DNA from: Verrucomicrobiota bacterium
Lineage (GTDB): Bacteria > Verrucomicrobiota > Kiritimatiellia > UBA8416 > JAQBFJ01
Length of the DNA stretch: 35,980 bases
Direction: 5' to 3'
Assembly: GCA_032123435.1 (NCBI GenBank)
Contig: JAQBFJ010000230.1
Location: forward strand, 1-35,980
Shown: positions 30,000 through 35,980 of the stretch, piece by piece
Position numbering within the stretch: position 1 is the first letter of the stretch
Layout of the letters: each line of letters starts with the position of its first letter
The notes under the pieces: generated by a model
The model's database searches: none
What the model saw: only the letters and a program-made list of their open reading frames with translations
What the model was told of the DNA's origin: nothing
Position numbers and translations under genes: made by a program

Positions 30000-31352
30000 A
30001 TGAGTAAACAAAAAATATTGGTTATTGAAGACGATCCTGACGGGCGCGCGGCAGTTGCCGACGCTTTGAAAGACGCCGGATTCGAAGTTGTGACGGCGGT
30101 TGACGGGAGCACGGGTTGTCGTTTATTCAAGGAGCAGACGTTTGATGTTGTTCTATCCGATTTGATTCTGCCGGATATTGACGGTATAACGGTGTTGAAA
30201 CAGATAAAGCAGGTGGATGTGGAAATGCCTGTTCTGATAATGACCGCTTACGGAACGGTATCTACTGCGGTACAGGCATTAAAGGATGGCGCTTATGATT
30301 ATATTACCAAGCCGCTGGATCTGGACGATTTGCAGTCAAAGGTGCGGCACGCCGCTGAGACACAGCGTCTGAAAACGGAAGTGACTCGTCTTCGGCAATG
30401 TGTAGACGAGCGTTATGGTATCGCGGCAATGGTGGCCGAATCCAGGGGAATGCAGGAAGTGATCAGGCAGGTGAAAATATTGGCTGATACCACGGCAACT
30501 GTCCTGATTCAAGGTGAAAGCGGAACGGGCAAAGAACTGGTTGCGCGTGCTTTGCATGTTGAAGGCAGACGGAGTGGCGAGCCGTTTGTGGCGATTAATT
30601 GCGGCGCGTTCGCCGAGAGTCTTCTGGAATCGGAGCTGTTCGGGCATGAGAAGGGCGCCTTTACCGGCGCTGTAAACACGCGCAAGGGCGCATTTGAGCG
30701 TGCGCATGGCGGAAGTCTTTTTCTGGATGAGATTGGTAACGCGCCGATGTCGGTACAGGTGAAACTGTTGCGCGCGCTGGAAGAACGGGAGATGGTTCGT
30801 GTCGGCGGACAATGTTCGATTCCTGTTGATGTTCGGGTCATCTCGGCTTCCAACAGGATGCTGGATGAGCTTGTTGAGGAAGGCGAGTTCAGGGAAGACT
30901 TATTTTACAGATTAAAAGTGGTTGATCTTACTATCCCGCCGCTTAGAAAACGACCTGCCGATATACGTCCGTTAGTTGATCGTTTTGTTGCGTTGTCGTG
31001 CAGTGAGCATGGCCGCAATATCAAGGCGATTGATGGCGCGTGTTATGACGCGCTCGAAAAGTATGATTGGCCCGGCAATGTACGGCAATTACGCAATGCT
31101 GTTGAGTCGGCGGTCATAATGGTGGCCGGTCCGATTTTACGTATATCGGATTTTCGGATTGATCATGGTATTGATCGGGTGTCAGACCAGTTTCATGTGC
31201 CTGATGGAATGACGCTTGATGAACTTGACAGGGCGATACTTCTGCAATTACTTCAGCGTAATGATGGTAATCGAACGATTGTGGCTGATAAGCTTGGGAT
31301 CTCTCGCCGCACAATTCAACGCAAGATCAAGGAATACGATTTGCCATTTTGA
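30000..31352 (+). CDS. Sigma-54-dependent response regulator (NtrC/ZraR/AtoC family)
   Basis: Receiver domain; GESGTGKE; GAFTGA; WPGNVRQL; Fis-type HTH. Confidence 0.95.
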   Translation: MSKQKILVIEDDPDGRAAVADALKDAGFEVVTAVDGSTGCRLFKEQTFDVVLSDLILPDIDGITVLKQIKQVDVEMPVLIMTAYGTVSTAVQALKDGAYDYITKPLDLDDLQSKVRHAAETQRLKTEVTRLRQCVDERYGIAAMVAESRGMQEVIRQVKILADTTATVLIQGESGTGKELVARALHVEGRRSGEPFVAINCGAFAESLLESELFGHEKGAFTGAVNTRKGAFERAHGGSLFLDEIGNAPMSVQVKLLRALEEREMVRVGGQCSIPVDVRVISASNRMLDELVEEGEFREDLFYRLKVVDLTIPPLRKRPADIRPLVDRFVALSCSEHGRNIKAIDGACYDALEKYDWPGNVRQLRNAVESAVIMVAGPILRISDFRIDHGIDRVSDQFHVPDGMTLDELDRAILLQLLQRNDGNRTIVADKLGISRRTIQRKIKEYDLPF

Positions 31353-31483
31353 TGATATCTGCTGTCCGATTTATCCTTTATTTTGAACCACTACTGTCCG
31401 GTTTTAAAGCCTTGTAATACAGTTGATTATTGATGTTGGGCTCTTGGAGTTCAAGCGCATTTTGCGAGAGCGCCTTTAAAATG

Positions 31484-31520
31484 GGGGTAATAGTTTAGCG
31501 CCTTTCGGGTCCCTCAGTCT
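31484..31520 (+). repeat. GGGGT..TTTAGCGCCTT / CCCTCAGTC REP-like boundary motif (left end of the variable region)
   Basis: Same motifs recur in direct orientation at 35488-35509 and 35570-35578; degenerate inverted copy AAGGCGAATT at 32279. Confidence 0.55.
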
Positions 31521-31521
31521 C

Positions 31522-31549
31522 CCTCAGCGATGGGTCTCCCTATCCCGAT
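31522..31549 (+). mobile_element. Group II intron 3'-terminal (domain VI) remnant
   Basis: CCTCAGCGATGGGTCTCCCTATCCCGAT is nearly identical to 33194-33224. Confidence 0.7.
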
Positions 31550-31554
31550 CGGTG

Positions 31555-31659
31555 TTATTCCATTTCTTTACTTCGTGCCCAGTCAACGTAATCCCACACT
31601 TGATAATCAATAATGATGCTCGCCAGAATGTCCGATGGAATCAGTCCTTGGCTAAACTG
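31555..31659 (-). pseudogene. Orphan 3' fragment of a cassette-like gene
   Basis: 34 open codons (QFSQGLIPSD..RSKEME*) without a start, ending 5 bp from the intron 3' end. Confidence 0.35.
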
Positions 31660-31687
31660 TTAGTCTCGTAAAAAAGAAAGAATAGGA

Positions 31688-31718
31688 TTGCATGCTCCTG
31701 TATTCTATTGTATTCTAT
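31688..31718 (+). promoter_or_regulatory. TA promoter/operator
   Basis: TTGCAT-17-TATTCT overlapped by the tandem repeat TGTATTCTAT x2 (31699-31718). Confidence 0.6.
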
Positions 31719-31739
31719 AGTTGAAGAATGGAGGTAACA

Positions 31740-31979
31740 ATGTCAAAAACGGTAACTCTCAGATTAGATGACAAAGTTTATCGCAAATTTCGAGACTTTG
31801 CGGAAAACGACCGCCGTCCCCTCTCGAATTTTATTGAGACGGCGGCTCTCCGTTTTGTTGAAGAACATGAATATATTGATGAGTTTGAAATGGCGGAAAT
31901 CCGAGACAACGCGAGTCTGAACCGTAGCATCACAGCCGGTCTTCGCGATGTCAAAGCTAAACGAGGTCGGTTTGTCTGA
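31740..31979 (+). CDS. CopG/RHH-family antitoxin
   Basis: MSKTVTLRLDD..LSNFIETA RHH pattern; GGAGG RBS; overlaps the toxin start. Confidence 0.85.
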   Translation: MSKTVTLRLDDKVYRKFRDFAENDRRPLSNFIETAALRFVEEHEYIDEFEMAEIRDNASLNRSITAGLRDVKAKRGRFV

Positions 31980-32280
31980 TTTTCGAATTTTCGAGACCGA
32001 TGAATTTGCAAAGCAGTTCAAGAAGCTGTCCTCGCGCGACGGGAATTTCCTCCGCAGGAAACTCAATTCCTATGTCTACCCACAGATACGAACGGACCCA
32101 TTCTGGGGTACCAACATCAAGAAACATCAAGATTACTCCCCCGCCACATGGCGATATCGGATCGGCAGATTCCGACTGTTTTATGTCGTCGACCAGGAAT
32201 CAAAAACAATCTCTATCCTCACGATCGATGATCGGAAGGATGCTTACAAGCGACCAGGAGAATGGATAACAAGACAATAA
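31972..32280 (+). CDS. relE: RelE/ParE-family toxin
   Basis: FETDEFAKQFKKL..WRYRIGRFRLFY..DDRKDAY; TTG start coupled to the antitoxin stop. Confidence 0.88.
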   Translation: MSDFRIFETDEFAKQFKKLSSRDGNFLRRKLNSYVYPQIRTDPFWGTNIKKHQDYSPATWRYRIGRFRLFYVVDQESKTISILTIDDRKDAYKRPGEWITRQ

Positions 32281-32311
32281 GGCGAATTGTTGACGTTCGC
32301 ATCGGGAGAGG

Positions 32312-32351
32312 CTGAAGGGTCAGAGCCCCCAAAATAGCAAAATAAGAAATT
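32312..32351 (+). repeat. Left arm of a ~40 bp inverted repeat
   Basis: 19 bp core CCCAAAATAGCAAAATAAG (32328-32346) is the exact reverse complement of 35544-35562. Confidence 0.85.
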
Positions 32352-32468
32352 GACGCTGGGTTTCCAGTCGGCTTTAGCTGGAGCAGAAAACGGGCTCGAA
32401 TCTAAGTATTAGCCAATGTTTTCAATAGAAAAAAGATGATCTCGTTGTTTTAGAGAAAAAGTGTTAGG

Positions 32469-32504
32469 CCGACCAGGCCTAGTCGGTATAATAAGTAGTT
32501 GGTT
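32469..32504 (+). mobile_element. attI-like integron recombination site
   Basis: GTATAAT-AAGTA-GTTGGTT preceded by the palindrome CCGACCAGGCCTAGTCGG; GTTGGTT is complementary to AACCAAC (32780-32786) at the end of the next gene. Confidence 0.65.
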
Positions 32505-32514
32505 GAAAGAGGAA

Positions 32515-32847
32515 ATGAAGATATTGAGGTCCACAGGTATTGCCTTGTTGCTCCTAGCGGCCTGCGGTGCGTTCTTCTTCGCAAACGTCGTTGCGGATCC
32601 AACTTGGATCACCGGCCCCGTTCCTCCGTGGTCTGGTTCGGGCATGACTGAGCAAGAGTTCGTTGCGGATTTGAAACACCAGACGCTCCCGTGGAGAATC
32701 GCCTCGGGAGCCCTTCTGGCTGGGGCTCTTGCCATGCTTGCCGTTCAAATCAAAGGAAGACACACAAGAGCCGAGACACAACCAACAACAACATCCACCC
32801 CGAAGCGGTTCATTCGAGGCGTTAAGCGTGGAAATGAGTATGAATAG
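32515..32847 (+). CDS. Small hypothetical membrane protein (gene cassette)
   Basis: GAGG RBS directly after the core site; two hydrophobic segments; reads through the damaged attC. Confidence 0.65.
   Translation: MKILRSTGIALLLLAACGAFFFANVVADPTWITGPVPPWSGSGMTEQEFVADLKHQTLPWRIASGALLAGALAMLAVQIKGRHTRAETQPTTTSTPKRFIRGVKRGNEYE
32780..32827 (+). mobile_element. Shortened/chimeric attC site
   Basis: R'' AACCAAC ... R' GTTAAGC, only 48 bp, with non-complementary inner arms. Confidence 0.55.
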
Positions 32848-32864
32848 AATCCTTCCCTCATCTT

Positions 32865-32893
32865 TGCGGCAACCGTCAACCAGATTGTTCTGT
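32865..32893 (-). mobile_element. Half attC (R'' ACAGAAC + spacer + L''-like GGTTGACG), truncated
   Basis: Begins 9 bp after the stop of the 32903 ORF; no complementary arm. Confidence 0.45.
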
Positions 32894-32902
32894 CGATAGG
32901 AA

Positions 32903-33130
32903 TTACGTTTTTGGCAATGATGGCCAATTTGTCCATTCATCCTGAAATGCGACTGGAACGCCCTGCTTTCCACACACTCTGATCGTGTGACCGGTCCCGC
33001 CTTTCATTGGATTATCCTGATTGACGTAAAAGATGCCTACTGTCGCAGGTGACAACGCGCATTCCGCCGCGCCAATAACTTTGATGGTGTCGCGTAGAAG
33101 GTACAGTATGTCGGAGGATGTGAAGTTCAA
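32903..33130 (-). pseudogene. 3' fragment of a SLOG-like (DprA/YpsA-related) cassette gene
   Basis: GGTGHTIRVC..GVPV resembles the SLOG C-terminal motif; the 5' part is replaced by the intron remnant. Confidence 0.45.
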
Positions 33131-33147
33131 TGGAGCTTCACCAGCAA

Positions 33148-33224
33148 GAACCGCCCGGTGCGGACCCGCATGCCGTGGTGGTGTGGGAGGGGGCCTCAGC
33201 GATGGGGCTTCCCCCTATCCCGAT
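33148..33224 (+). mobile_element. Group IIC(-attC) intron remnant: domains V and VI
   Basis: GAACCGCCCGGTGCGGACCCGCATGCC..GGTGGTGTG (CGC triad); domain VI ends CCTATCCCGAT; 3' exon TCGGT; no RT ORF present. Confidence 0.88.
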
Positions 33225-33670
33225 TCGGTTATTTTTTTCTTTAATTCATTCAAATGGCGAAACGGGAAGCAGATCCAAAACGTCATCTGGTTTCCTTGCC
33301 GATTGCTCGGCCCATCTTTCATGACAAAGATCTTCTCCCCTCGACACTTGGCGAGGAATGCATCAATCTTCCGGTTCTGCTCCTCGATTTCCGCAATTGT
33401 GCCAAGGCGACCGACAAGAGGTCTTCGAAGGAGCCACGATGCAAAACGTGCGAACCATTCCCCTTTGATCGGTTCAGGTGATCGGTTTGTAAAACTGTCA
33501 AGATCAGACAACAGCGACTCTTGATCTCGATATGGCCATACGGTGTGATAACTATGACGTGTGCCTCCCGTGCGTTCGACTACATCAATCTTGAGTTCCT
33601 GACCATCTGGATGATCAGCTATTGTTGTCTGATACGTCGTGGGGCCAATTTTGATAGTTTCGTTTATCAT
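33215..33670 (-). CDS. Hypothetical protein (gene cassette)
   Basis: ATG at 33670, 8 bp after core site GTTCGGT; ends at R'' ACCGAA, with the stop supplied by intron sequence. Confidence 0.7.
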   Translation of the reverse strand: MINETIKIGPTTYQTTIADHPDGQELKIDVVERTGGTRHSYHTVWPYRDQESLLSDLDSFTNRSPEPIKGEWFARFASWLLRRPLVGRLGTIAEIEEQNRKIDAFLAKCRGEKIFVMKDGPSNRQGNQMTFWICFPFRHLNELKKKITESG

Positions 33671-33678
33671 TCTCTTAA

Positions 33679-33757
33679 ACCGAACGTCCTGCTCACCGGA
33701 CCAGTGAGGACGCGCACCGCGCGGCCTTACTGGGTACGGCGTAGCAACTGGTTCTGC
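33679..33757 (-). mobile_element. attC site (79 bp)
   Basis: R'' GCAGAAC-CAGTT-GCTACGCC ... GGTGAGC-AGGAC-GTTCGGT R'; long imperfect hairpin with two extrahelical bases. Confidence 0.85.
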
Positions 33758-33789
33758 ATTCTGTCTCAAGGATTGTAGGGAGACACTAT

Positions 33790-34638
33790 TTAGTCTGTTT
33801 CGAGTACAACTCGAAACCCGGTCGTGTACCATCCATCGTCTTTGTCGGTCCGCGTAGTGTAAGCATCAGATGCCACCAAGTCAGGCAAATCGTACCACGA
33901 TCCGCCGCAGCACACGATTTCGGTACACCATTCGGCCACGTTCCCATGCATGTCGTAGAGACCCCACGGATTTGGCTTGAAGCTGCCGACCGGGGCCGTG
34001 TTGTTGTGGCCGTCACTGTAGAGCTTGTCCTTAAAGACAAGATCATACGGGTTCGACGGATCGAGTCTGCGGGAGTTGTCAGCGTAGTTGGCGTGTTCTG
34101 GTAATTCGGCAACATCGTCGCCAAAGCTGTACTTCGTGCTAGTTCCCGCTCTGCAAGCGTATTGCCATTCAGCCTGGCTCGGCAGTCTGTACTCTTTTCC
34201 ATCCGTGGCACTGAGCGTCCGGCAGAAGTCGACAGCTTGCTGCCACGACACTTTCTCAACAGGGCGCTCGCCACCCTCAAACTGACTTGGGTTGTTCTTT
34301 GTGACGGACTCGTACTGACTCTGTGTAATTTCGTGAATAGAGAAGTAGACTGCCCTTGGCAGATCCGTTGTGGCAGATCCCGGATTCCCGGGCTCGATAA
34401 GTCGGAATTCAATTCCGATTGAATTTGTCACTACATGCGCAAGTGGTGCAGAGGCGGAACTGGCGAGAAGCACGTCGTTACCCTCGATAGTCTGGACAGC
34501 CTCAGAATGCGGGACGGTGATGTCCGTGGCCGTGTTGGTCGATGCCGACCTCGCTGGTTCGGGTTGTCTATCTCCACCACATCCAGACATTAACATCACT
34601 GCGGCGATTGCGCAGACACCAGTGGATAGTGTTTTCAT
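33790..34638 (-). CDS. FGE/SUMF1-domain lipoprotein (gene cassette)
   Basis: Lipobox LMSGC; RLPSQAEWQYACRAG, NPWGLYDMHGNVAEWC and GFRVV. Confidence 0.9.
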   Translation of the reverse strand: MKTLSTGVCAIAAVMLMSGCGGDRQPEPARSASTNTATDITVPHSEAVQTIEGNDVLLASSASAPLAHVVTNSIGIEFRLIEPGNPGSATTDLPRAVYFSIHEITQSQYESVTKNNPSQFEGGERPVEKVSWQQAVDFCRTLSATDGKEYRLPSQAEWQYACRAGTSTKYSFGDDVAELPEHANYADNSRRLDPSNPYDLVFKDKLYSDGHNNTAPVGSFKPNPWGLYDMHGNVAEWCTEIVCCGGSWYDLPDLVASDAYTTRTDKDDGWYTTGFRVVLETD

Positions 34639-34655
34639 GCCGATCTCCCTTCCTT

Positions 34656-34674
34656 GCAGAACTACTTATTAGCC
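34656..34674 (-). mobile_element. 19 bp hybrid attC-R''/attI junction (attI*-like)
   Basis: GGCTAAT-AAGTA-GTTCTGC. Confidence 0.7.
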
Positions 34675-34682
34675 GTGATTCT

Positions 34683-34880
34683 CTAAGCCGTTGCAAGCTG
34701 GTAGGAGAACTCGTTAACATCGGTTTGGTCTTTGGCATGTTCAACTGTCATGCTGACGACATGACCATCTTTATCAACCTCGACCAGAACGTCTTCATTC
34801 AAGTCGTATGTCTCTGTGATGTCATGCTTGCTAAATGTCAGCAAGAGTGTGTCTGTGTCTGAGAAGTATTTTGCTTTCAT
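34683..34880 (-). CDS. DUF2283-family putative antitoxin
   Basis: MKAKYFSDTDTLLLTF..VDKDGHVVSMTVEHA; acidic, 65 aa. Confidence 0.85.
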   Translation of the reverse strand: MKAKYFSDTDTLLLTFSKHDITETYDLNEDVLVEVDKDGHVVSMTVEHAKDQTDVNEFSYQLATA

Positions 34881-34885
34881 TATAT

Positions 34886-35122
34886 TTACTCCTTAAATCT
34901 TCTGTCAAAAAATGCATTATGAATGGTAGTGCCATCTTCCAGAAGGACTACTCTTAAATACTTGCTATCTGCTTCAATTATCTTTTTCCACCGGCGAATG
35001 CGGCCATCGGCCTGAACTCTTTCGACGTCAGGGGCAAGAACCGTGCTTTCGATCCAGTCCAACTTGATTGTAGCACGGTCAGGCCGTATTCTCGTATGTT
35101 CAAAATACTGGGTGAACTTCAT
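34886..35122 (-). CDS. Putative toxin partner (DUF4258/RelE-like fold)
   Basis: Basic, 78 aa; QADGRIRRW..YLRVVLLEDGTTIHNAFFDR; directly upstream of DUF2283. Confidence 0.75.
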   Translation of the reverse strand: MKFTQYFEHTRIRPDRATIKLDWIESTVLAPDVERVQADGRIRRWKKIIEADSKYLRVVLLEDGTTIHNAFFDRRFKE

Positions 35123-35128
35123 GCTGAA

Positions 35129-35157
35129 AACATAGCAAAGAGCTACCCGATAGTCCA
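35129..35157 (-). promoter_or_regulatory. Cassette-internal sigma-70 promoter giving a probably leaderless transcript
   Basis: TGGACT-17-TATGTT with TGn extension; ATG 6 nt after the -10 box; no SD. Confidence 0.55.
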
Positions 35158-35177
35158 GACATTCAATTGTTCTTTAC

Positions 35178-35269
35178 GGCTAACTACTTATTCAACAGAT
35201 CTCGTTATCCTTCCAAATCGGGAGGTAAACGCTATCTCGTTATCCTGCCAATTTGGGAGGCAAAGTGTT
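35178..35269 (-). mobile_element. Second attI-like site with upstream 35 bp-period direct repeats
   Basis: GTTGAAT-AAGTA-GTTAGCC (35178-35196); repeats ATCTCGTTATCCTKCCAAWTYGGGAGG start at 35199 and 35234. Confidence 0.65.
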
Positions 35270-35538
35270 CTCACTCGTCATTTCGTGTCGCAAGTACCAC
35301 TCCATGCCGTATTTGTTCTCAAACATGCGACAACACAGCCAGACTATAATACGTGCTGCGCCAACGTCAAGCATGTTTCGGAATGGAAATGAGATGCGTT
35401 CATGCATCCCACTTGTTGTTTGGAGCAGAATGACACCTGGCTGAGTGAGAAAAACACTTTGCAGAAAGACCAAGGTCACACAAAGTCGGGGTCTGCCATT
35501 TAGCGCCTTGATGGCTGGTCCCGGTAAGAGATAGAAAT

Positions 35539-35576
35539 AATTCCTTATTTTGCTATTTTGGGAGCTGACCCCTCAG
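35539..35576 (-). repeat. Right arm of the ~40 bp inverted repeat
   Basis: Reverse complement CTGAGGGGTCAGCTCCCAAAATAGCAAAATAAGGAATT vs CTGAAGGGTCAGAGCCCCCAAAATAGCAAAATAAGAAATT. Confidence 0.85.
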
Positions 35577-35614
35577 TCCCACGACTCCTCAGTCCCACAC
35601 TGTGTCCCCGAAAT

Positions 35615-35980
35615 CTACGTTTCCAGGTCTTTTGTATTGTTGGCATCGAAAGTCAGGATGAATTCAGAGCCTTTCCCTGGTTCACTTACTACATCTATTG
35701 TACCGCCGTTCCTGGTGATAAGGCGATATGTTATGGAGAGTCCGAGTCCGAGCCCTTTTTGCGCTTTTTTTGTCGTGAAAAAAGGATCGAAAATATTTTC
35801 CTGCACCTGTTTTTCCATGCCTGGTCCATTATCCTTTATCCGGACAACGACAGATTCTCCTTCCGCCTGCAATGATATTTCGATTGTTCCTTTGTTGTTC
35901 ATGGCGTCTGCCGCGTTGTTCAGCAGATTCAATATGGCGTGCTGGATCTGTATTCCATCCAGGAACAGGGTTGGGATATT
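35615..35980 (-). CDS. Histidine kinase, C-terminal HATPase_c domain (5' part outside the window)
   Basis: NLLNNAADAM, DNGPGM, FDPFFTTK and GLGLGL. Confidence 0.9.
   Translation of the reverse strand, partial: NIPTLFLDGIQIQHAILNLLNNAADAMNNKGTIEISLQAEGESVVVRIKDNGPGMEKQVQENIFDPFFTTKKAQKGLGLGLSITYRLITRNGGTIDVVSEPGKGSEFILTFDANNTKDLET

Follow-up and report, generated by a model that had tools for sequence, protein, structure and literature searches.

Two probably decayed, integrase-less integrons of different classes meeting tail to tail between REP-type repeats in a Verrucomicrobiota genome

The window analysed here is the entire contig C230 (35,980 nt) of G000, a metagenome-assembled genome (MAG) from the Verrucomicrobiota with a size of 2.57 Mb, 289 contigs and 92% completeness. 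Between a gene for a sigma-54 response regulator and a gene for a histidine kinase, this contig holds a locus (~31500-35600) in which gene cassettes of the integron type are read from both strands, in two arrays that start at heads resembling integron attachment sites (attI). The segment containing both heads is bounded by two inverted copies of a short repeat of the repetitive extragenic palindrome (REP) type (Table 1). We consider it likely that these features represent two decayed chromosomal integrons of different classes (A on the right, B on the left), placed tail to tail, capped by REP elements and both devoid of their integrase gene (intI). The comparison set comprised 64 genomes of the same order, G000 included, among which G001 is the single family-mate of G000, and integrases were searched with the integron-integrase model TIGR02249 (curated cut-off of 265 bits; match threshold of E≤0.001).

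The right head (attI-A) is 85-92% identical to a region of the relative G010 (contig C185, 1142-1386) that ends 41 nt before the start of an intI open reading frame (ORF), the product of which (IntI-A) is full length, with 324 aa and 386 bits on TIGR02249. Upstream of its crossover core, this head holds two direct repeats of 31 nt with the motif GGATAACGAGAT (35199-35264; repeat family D1), which are 87% identical and have a spacing of 35 nt, as well as a sequence found promoter-like by the scan (TTGACG-16-TATAGT, 10/12, at 35370 to 35343) that is directed into the minus-strand array. Another relative, G053, carries on its contig C115 an attI-A region with 72% identity and an identical core, and its intI is a seven-codon stub. 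In the alignment of the three genomes, a TTGAC...TATTAT promoter and the GGATAACGAGAT repeats are conserved, and identity ends directly after ...TAAGTAGTT; conservation that stops right after GTT is the signature expected of an attI crossover point. To judge from these homologies, the right head is a genuine attI/promoter region that has lost its integrase. The attI1 site of class 1 integrons has direct-repeat integrase-binding sites upstream of the simple site, and the two direct repeats of attI-A likewise lie upstream of its core, but they share no sequence similarity with those of attI1 and their binding role is putative.

The extent of the loss can be read from the same kind of comparison. 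Homology with the G010 leader ends at 35384, and homology with the trailer of an intI-A remnant on contig C206 restarts at 35422 or, by short-query alignment, at 35437, a point that lies ~100-115 nt past the intI stop codon. The sequence exchanged for ~36-50 nt amounts to about 1.1 kb and takes in the entire ORF. The remnant on C206 is 5'-truncated, interrupted by a stop and 91% identical to IntI-A over the 172 aligned residues, and it is followed by the module MR as its trailer and by a REP arm, in the same way as in the window. MR is 90% identical to C206:2612-2770 and 89% identical to contig C40 of G001, and nhmmer finds two copies of it in the genome. The possibility that an intI remnant persists inside the right module was rejected, as DNA homology to C206 is limited to the trailer and no match was obtained at the protein level.

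The left head (attI-B) is formed by two modules, L1 and L2, which together are 88% identical to G010:C112 2011-2148, ~315 bp from a divergent intI ORF whose product (IntI-B) is also full length (323 aa, 404 bits on TIGR02249). Among the 64 genomes, L1+L2 is present in just G000 and G010. The initial annotation had made its interpretation depend on the core of the two sites lying beside an intI elsewhere, and both sites are indeed homologous to sequence beside a full-length intI in G010. L1, which has six nhmmer copies in the genome, aligns with the intI-B-proximal region of G010:C112, and three similarly oriented boxes are recognised in the head by reading the alignments. L2 holds a consensus TATAAT without a good -35 element and was not called by the promoter scan.

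A feature that distinguishes attI-B is its multiplication. A total of 18 nhmmer copies of L2 occur in G000 (on C117, C287, C26, C87, C129, C150, C218, C275, C258, C248, C33, C211, C108 and C276), each of which ends with TATAAT, 6-7 nt and GTT and then diverges into a different small ORF, and eight of which have a REP arm fused upstream; elsewhere in the 64 genomes, L2 is found once, beside intI-B in G010. When the rule that the first bases of a circular cassette complement its own R'' box was applied at the GTT of L2, it was obeyed by 4 of the 13 usable copies, compared with 13 of 188 cross-matched controls (7%), and the L2 GTT has thus served as a cassette junction. Some L2 copies sit inside arrays after the left part of a cassette recombination site (attC), joined at the position of the attI-core-like TTAGCC box of L1, a candidate for a secondary crossover site. 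On the reverse strand of C258 (~520-1150), a cassette array contains two short forms of L2 at a distance of 480 bp, each preceded by an attC left part, with the joint at (CC/TC)AGCCAATG instead of TT, which corresponds to the TTAGCC box of full-length L1. In the metagenomic runs described below, contig depth at the L2 bin relative to the flanking bins is 15-19x in X1, X2 and X6 and ~4x in X7, values that are not usable as a copy number. An interpretation of L2 as the 3' half of a long attC was rejected because it lacks R''/R' symmetry and does not fold end to end as an attC would. That the attI-B head, an attI with a consensus -10 promoter, constitutes a multiplied and movable module is a possible but doubtful idea, suggested by the presence of ~18 copies in a genome without an assembled intI-B, with eight fused to REPs, two in arm-L2-arm units, others within arrays and several heading integrated cassettes.

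IntI-A and IntI-B are 56% identical, and the next closest integrases to IntI-A in the species-level collection are ~52% identical. Full-length intI genes over the cut-off number four in G010, two in G001, two in G053 and one in G021, and multi-integron genomes seem to be usual in the group. In G000, TIGR02249 gives 11 matches, none of them on C230 and none above 265 bits. One of the integrases of the genome, at the edge of contig C182 (113 bits), belongs to a third type that is 52-55% identical to A and B. A family scan across the 36 kb of C230 found no Y1 transposase either, so that the claim of the initial annotation that neither intI nor a transposase lies in the window holds for intI and for the Y1 family; other transposase families were outside the scan.

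Both heads share the 11-mer AATAAGTAGTT, which is found in three exact copies in the window, at 32490 (+), 34660 (-) and 35182 (-), with an expectation of 0.36 at up to one mismatch and with three copies reached in 1 of 100 shuffles; the whole genome has four exact copies, the fourth at C129:3216. Both inward-pointing sites initially described with this core are present, and the copy at 34660 brings their number to three. The ends of the attI-A core (TGAATAAGTAG + TT) and of the L2 consensus (TAATAATAAG + TT) are homologous at 10 of 14 positions by reading the alignments, and two substitutions in the L2 copy of the window make the 11-mers identical. The 11-mer is common to both heads because the attI cores of two related integrases are homologous. 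The third copy lies in a hybrid joint between cassettes c1 and c2 (site B), at which c1 retains just its R'' box, followed by a half-core of attI-A. The homologous cassette of G021 has a full attC at this place, and the TTCTGC beyond site B is the same as the sequence after the attI-A of G053. Loss of the attC hairpin, microhomology recombination with a second attI-A and duplication of the 11 bp on insertion are three readings that fit this site.

The cassettes themselves were recognised by the circular-cassette rule, which four complete cassettes obey, as had been proposed at the outset. The reverse complement of their first 8 nt (with C or T accepted as the last base) is found at distances of 281, 509, 904 and 455 nt in the downstream direction, immediately ahead of the next junction, whereas ~1.1 chance matches per strand are expected over 35,980 nt. 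Complementarity is 8/8 for cassettes A and c2 and 7/8 for c1 and c3 (AAT for AAC), and the two truncated cassettes have no start/R'' partner. The boxes were read against the R''/R' consensus. In cassette A, the R'' box CAACCAAC (32779-32786) complements the start GTTGGTTG, and the attC is degenerate (32779-32827; z=-0.95). The truncated cassette that comes next shares 91% identity with C218:2960-3238 over 279 nt, with the homology beginning exactly at GTTAAG, past an attC-like hairpin on C218. Because this plus-strand cassette matches C218 up to 33099, the point at which the two arrays meet tail to tail is placed at 33099/33100, and not at 32830-32890 as given in the initial annotation, which had not included this further cassette. 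The same source had offered, as one of two possibilities, two decayed integrons fused head to head through REP-like ends; the decayed integrons and the REP arms have been retained here, but the geometry is tail to tail.

On the minus strand, the repeat that closes c3 is a member of a family whose conservation extends to other families of the order, with matches of 39-46 nt that reach up to 98% identity in G026, G022 and G005 and 92% in G029. The conserved part ends AATCGG...GGCGGTTC, its flanks are variable, and the minimum-energy fold consists of two hairpins (z=-1.19). This family was also observed in G001, G024 and G002, and in relatives it often lies close to contig ends. The attC that closes c2 forms an end-to-end hairpin of -21.1 kcal/mol (z=-2.88; equalled by 2 of 200 shuffles), is 8/8 complementary to the c2 start and has 87-90% identical copies in G021, G023 and G004. 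The NCBIfam matches of the c2 protein are partial and below the cut-offs. Cassette c1 is 78% identical to G021:C75 11862-12282, with homology from 34665. Within c1, just upstream of the DUF2283 ORF, a perfect (12/12) TTGACA-18-TATAAT at 34908-34879 (-) is a candidate for a cassette-internal promoter. Outside the left arm, the toxin-antitoxin cassette ends in the R'' box GGATAAC (32264-32270) and a miniature attC of 38 nt (32264-32301) that folds poorly (z=-1.71); it is 71% identical to G021:C75 7024-7533, where the R'' box GGATAAC complements the start GTTATCC. The homologous cassettes lie in a cassette-like contig of G021. Further to the left, 31500-31560 is a predicted remnant of another minus-strand cassette outside the inverted repeats.

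Table 1. Features of the locus on contig C230, from left to right
Feature	Position	Strand	Description
attC-family left half and degenerate REP-like hairpin	31500..31560	-	Same family as 33145-33233 (D4, D6: 31522-31549 vs 33194-33224, 89-93%)
Toxin-antitoxin cassette, outside the left arm (left edge provisional)	31728..32301	+	83-aa antitoxin-like ORF (31728-31979); ParE-type toxin (31948-32280; Pfam ParE_toxin, E=2.5e-5)
Left REP-type arm	32306..32350	+	Weak G/C hairpin, then CAAAATAGCAAAATAAG
L1, distal part of attI-B	32351..32435	+	Box CCAGTCGGCTTTAGCTGG; attI-core-like box at TAAGTATTAGCC
L2, core of attI-B	32438..32501	+	Consensus TATAAT; crossover junction G/TT at 32498-32500; left "simple site" of the initial annotation
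Cassette A	32498..32820	+	110-aa ORF (32515-32847); no Pfam or NCBIfam match
Truncated cassette	32821..33099	+	Starts GTTAAGC; distal portion of a minus-strand ORF that has 75 aa in the window and is longer on C218
c4, 5' stub	33100..33151	-	Starts GTTCTTGC at 33151; ~50 nt; cut at the collision
attC-family repeat closing c3	33145..33233	-	Left flank AACCGAAT (variable) complements the c3 start GTTCGGTT
c3 ORF	33218..33664	-	149 aa; no family match
attC closing c2	33679..33758	-	Canonical: R'' TGCAGAAC, long imperfect hairpin with bulges, R' GTTCGGT
c2 ORF	33790..34638	-	282 aa; lipoprotein-like; FGE-sulfatase (SUMF1-like) domain, PF03781, E=1.1e-28
Site B, hybrid c1/c2 joint	34660..34679	-	c1 R'' box CGGCTAAT directly into AAGTAG/TTCTGCA; third 11-mer copy; no attC hairpin
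c1 ORFs	34683..35122	-	78 aa (34886-35122), no family; 65 aa (34683-34880), DUF2283, PF10049, E=8.5e-13
attI-A head	35181..35384	-	Core ...TGAATAAGTAG, then TT, at 35182-35192
Filler of unrelated sequence	35385..35420		~36 nt (36-50 by alignment) in place of the intI-A leader, ORF and proximal trailer
MR	35422..35543	+	Counterpart of the C206 sequence between the intI-A stop and the REP arm
Right REP-type arm	35539..35598	-	Arm (35539-35578) and 16-nt tandem duplication of the hairpin flank (35567-35598; repeat family D5)

The inverted core that bounds the segment, already reported in the initial annotation, is a 19-mer present without mismatches at 32328-32346 (+) and 35544-35562 (-), which is beyond chance (0.01 expected; two matches in none of 100 shuffles). 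A repeat finder extends it to arms of 28 nt (32324-32351 and 35539-35566), 93% complementary and with 3187 nt between them. Each arm is made up of a G/C hairpin followed on its 3' side by a conserved A-rich tail, CAAAATAGYAAAATAAGG, and the hairpin of the left arm is weak by itself (z=-0.18). A search with nhmmer seeded with the arm recovered just the arm itself, and the census was therefore made with fuzzy patterns: an 18-mer pattern with up to one mismatch is found 30 times in G000, once in G001 and in none of the other 62 genomes, while the reversed pattern used as a control has no matches. In G000, the arms are single or in tandem, in either orientation, and a few recurring modules follow them on the inner side. 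Two of these modules are the 5' and 3' ends of a transposase gene on C87, an ORF of 339 aa with a match to the Y1/IS200-like family (Y1_Tnp, PF01797, E=2.4e-10) and with inverted arms on both sides, at C87:14904 (-) and 13796 (+); there are three Y1_Tnp ORFs in the genome, and arms were looked for beside the C87 ORF only.

These properties resemble those of the REPtron, in which REPs and bacterial interspersed mosaic elements (BIMEs) are described as short palindromes with a conserved GTAG at their 5' side, and the gene for the REP-associated tyrosine transposase (RAYT, or TnpA-REP) as bordered by REPs (PMC8266576). The arms of G000 are likewise short G/C-rich palindromes in tens of copies, mostly intergenic, often in inverted pairs and bordering a Y1 gene. 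In contrast, GTAG is not seen 5' of the palindrome in the aligned arms, which have ATAG in the conserved A-rich tail 3' of the hairpin, and several are fused to promoter modules, including the attI-B head. The ~190-bp arm-L2-arm units on C275 and C150, which might be taken for empty carriers, carry the 3' end of the transposase gene and are therefore deleted RAYT loci. The inverted repeats that bound the segment are REP-type elements and not the ends of a mobile unit. The arm was also tried as an attC-type site and rejected, because it shows neither R''/R' symmetry nor an end-to-end fold. At three or more places (window 32301/32306, C87 ~12742 and C287 ~15939), the 3' half of an attC-type site is adjoined or supplanted by a REP arm, as though these two types of hairpin targeted or displaced each other. 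Downstream of the truncated intI-A, C206 (2700-5375) presents a run of small minus-strand ORFs with a spacing of ~500-1000 bp, each preceded by a REP arm in the same orientation and a promoter module of the TTGAC...TACAAT type, so that REPs, not attC sites, punctuate it. An Rfam scan of 31500-35980 (E≤1) gave as its sole match a sub-threshold PYLIS_4 (24.6 bits vs 50, E=0.86), and in that scan none of L1/L2, the arm and the conserved attC-family element is accounted for by a known RNA family.

The continuity of the locus was examined with contigs from four runs (X1, X2, X6 and X7) of three studies, aligned to 31300-35980. Contigs without mismatches cover 33180-35249 in two studies and 33358-35249 in the third. 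The joint 33099/33100 is bridged in two runs (X2 record 11, 32931-33131; X1 record 4, 33066-33177) with no mismatches, the joint of the intI deletion in all four runs, and site B is spanned by contigs without mismatches in the three studies. Taken together, the collision, site A, site B and the deletion joint each have contigs across them that match without mismatches and extend 31 nt or more to either side, in two to four runs and up to three studies. No single contig spans the whole stretch, and the contigs listed leave 32393-32403, inside the repeat, unbridged.

The same data contain further copies of attI-A and polymorphisms in the population. In three runs, another copy of attI-A departs from the window sequence right behind ...AATAAGTAGTT and enters a different cassette (loose end at 35182), and in the same three runs a separate contig, which may or may not come from that copy, continues past 35384 like the intI leader of G010 (loose end at 35384); neither loose-end motif has a match in the MAG. 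All four runs also include a version of the attI-A head that has an additional direct-repeat unit. Other differences are a 16-nt indel at 35571, in the tandem repeat by the right arm, in X1 and X2 contigs, and a 10-nt deletion in X2 at 31699, in a GTATTCTATT motif that is repeated ahead of the antitoxin gene. The tails of X6 contigs at 31511 and 33684 are presumably sequencing adapter and thus a technical artefact.

According to the explanation we favour, the right integron (class A) keeps its attI, repeats of the integrase-binding type and the cassette promoter, while its integrase gene has been cleanly deleted, leaving the former 3' flank and the REP; three complete cassettes and one 5' stub follow on the minus strand. 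The left integron (class B) keeps its attI/promoter head (32351-32501), with a REP in place of the integrase side, and one complete and one truncated cassette on the plus strand. A rearrangement at 33099/33100 would then have joined the arrays, cutting one cassette per side. In this order of events, the heads would once have been working attI sites, and the locus would now be inert unless an integrase acts in trans.

Several observations weigh against this explanation. The heads are called attI by virtue of their position and homology in a single relative (G010), together with one degenerate copy (G053), and the ~18 L2 copies, some of them inside arrays, are unlike a classical single attI. By hand count, the five attC-type sites comprise one that is canonical, one whose family is conserved but whose fold is non-canonical, and three that are miniature, so that one in five folds canonically and the z values of the others range from -0.95 to -1.71; formal membership among the attC-site clusters that lack an integron-integrase (CALINs), whose definition requires the IntegronFinder covariance model to detect two or more attC sites and no intI to lie within 4 kb, is not assured. 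The 11-mer at 34660 is not accounted for by standard attI x attC chemistry. The promoter and terminator scan of the region showed no enrichment relative to shuffles (8 promoter-like sequences vs 4.4 +/- 2.1). In G001, the regulator gene is at the start of a contig and is followed by an ORF of 307 aa of no assigned family, the kinase gene not being there, and an insertion between the two genes has no empty-site support because G001 has no synteny downstream of the regulator. Finally, the read support is partly non-independent, because the run that holds the locus best may be the source sample of the MAG.

It is unlikely, although not without arguments, that the locus is a still-working double platform in which both attI heads capture or lose cassettes by means of an integrase provided in trans from another place in the cell or population. 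Both attI cores have stayed intact and conserved, the cassettes at the various L2 copies differ from one another and follow the rule, the alternative attI-A copy of three runs heads yet another cassette while a separate contig resembles the intI leader, and integrases could come from the third type on C182 or from a gene like those of the relatives, each with 1-4 full-length intI. However, the genome has no assembled intI above the curated cut-off, the candidates for action in trans are 52-56% identical, and the alternative copies in the reads are not assignable to the same organism. What weakens this possibility is decay, as three of the five attC-type sites are miniaturised or poorly folding, with one folding canonically, and two cassettes are cut at the collision. 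A different objection concerns L2, which might be not an attI but a mobile promoter module (a promoter cassette without an ORF, or a promoter associated with REPs) that just happens to lie beside intI-B in G010. Its 18 copies, about half of them fused to REPs and some between the left part of an attC and the next cassette, would suit such a module, as would the TATAAT ~7 nt before the divergence, since a transcription start would likewise end conservation. This is nevertheless improbable in view of the canonical position and orientation of L2 to a divergent full-length intI in G010, of the homology of its end to the attI-A core, of the excess of matching R'' boxes over the controls, and of the lack of an attC-like end-to-end fold.

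The inverted arms, 93% complementary, and the short arm-L2-arm units could also suggest a discrete non-autonomous element, composite or similar to a miniature transposable element with inverted repeats (MITE), that moved as a 3.26-kb unit with the 40-bp inverted repeats as its ends; the initial annotation had described the bounded segment as a unit. We consider this very improbable. DNA of cassette origin extends beyond the left arm (31500-32301), so the inverted repeats do not delimit the integron-derived DNA; the interior of the segment recurs nowhere else in the genome as a unit, no transposase that would serve the unit is seen, nor, by reading the sequence, any direct repeat or target duplication outside the arms, single as well as tandem arms are present in either orientation, and the supposedly empty units are those with the RAYT gene end. 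Scarcely credible is a chimeric assembly that joined unrelated pieces across repeats, a danger the initial annotation had raised: in a MAG of 289 contigs, many of which break at L2 or at the arms, and with the gap in bridging at 32393-32403, such an error might be expected, but the critical joints are bridged by contigs from three studies. Two decayed integrons of different classes thus remain the likely explanation of the locus.

Integrons that lost their integrase are known from other bacteria. In a study of Xanthomonas, most strains are reported to have an intI "either truncated or absent", with the array persisting (bioRxiv 10.1101/2025.06.18.660453). Those sedentary integrons are similar to the locus described here in being chromosomal platforms that kept the array while the integrase was truncated or lost; unlike them, the window has two facing platforms of different classes (IntI-A and IntI-B types), and one intI is wholly removed with both its flanks kept. 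An origin by integrase loss has also been proposed for CALINs, and the same work reports that intI pseudogenes lie near 15 of 279 CALINs and that 95% have no recognisable intI remains (PMC4889954). The window shares with CALINs the cassette arrays without a nearby intI, but it retains identifiable attI/promoter heads. According to the same paper, attI sites are known for classes 1-3 only (PMC4889954), and IntegronFinder would for that reason be blind to the heads of the window. With two classes, convergent arrays, recognisable attI heads and the clean excision of an intI, this locus differs from known orphan arrays. No description of multiplied attI heads or of attI-REP fusions was found in the literature searched (listings and passages, supplements excluded).

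The locus offers an example at base level of how an orphan cassette array may originate, since the integrase ORF is gone while the attI head and the former 3' flank remain. As the whole ORF was removed, a search for pseudogenes would find nothing, which bears on the puzzle of the absent intI remains of CALINs and suggests that their origins could be traced through attI homology instead of intI remnants. It also provides candidate attI sites, with natural evidence of the crossover point, for two integron classes in this order of the Verrucomicrobiota. The ~18-fold presence of an attI/promoter head and its coupling to REPs are unusual, and make it testable that integration sites, and not cassettes alone, spread within a genome. 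If REP/RAYT activity, or an integrase acting at the secondary box within attI, spreads these heads, the genome would contain many dispersed landing pads for cassettes, each equipped with a promoter, and such landing pads would be served in trans by any integrase present.

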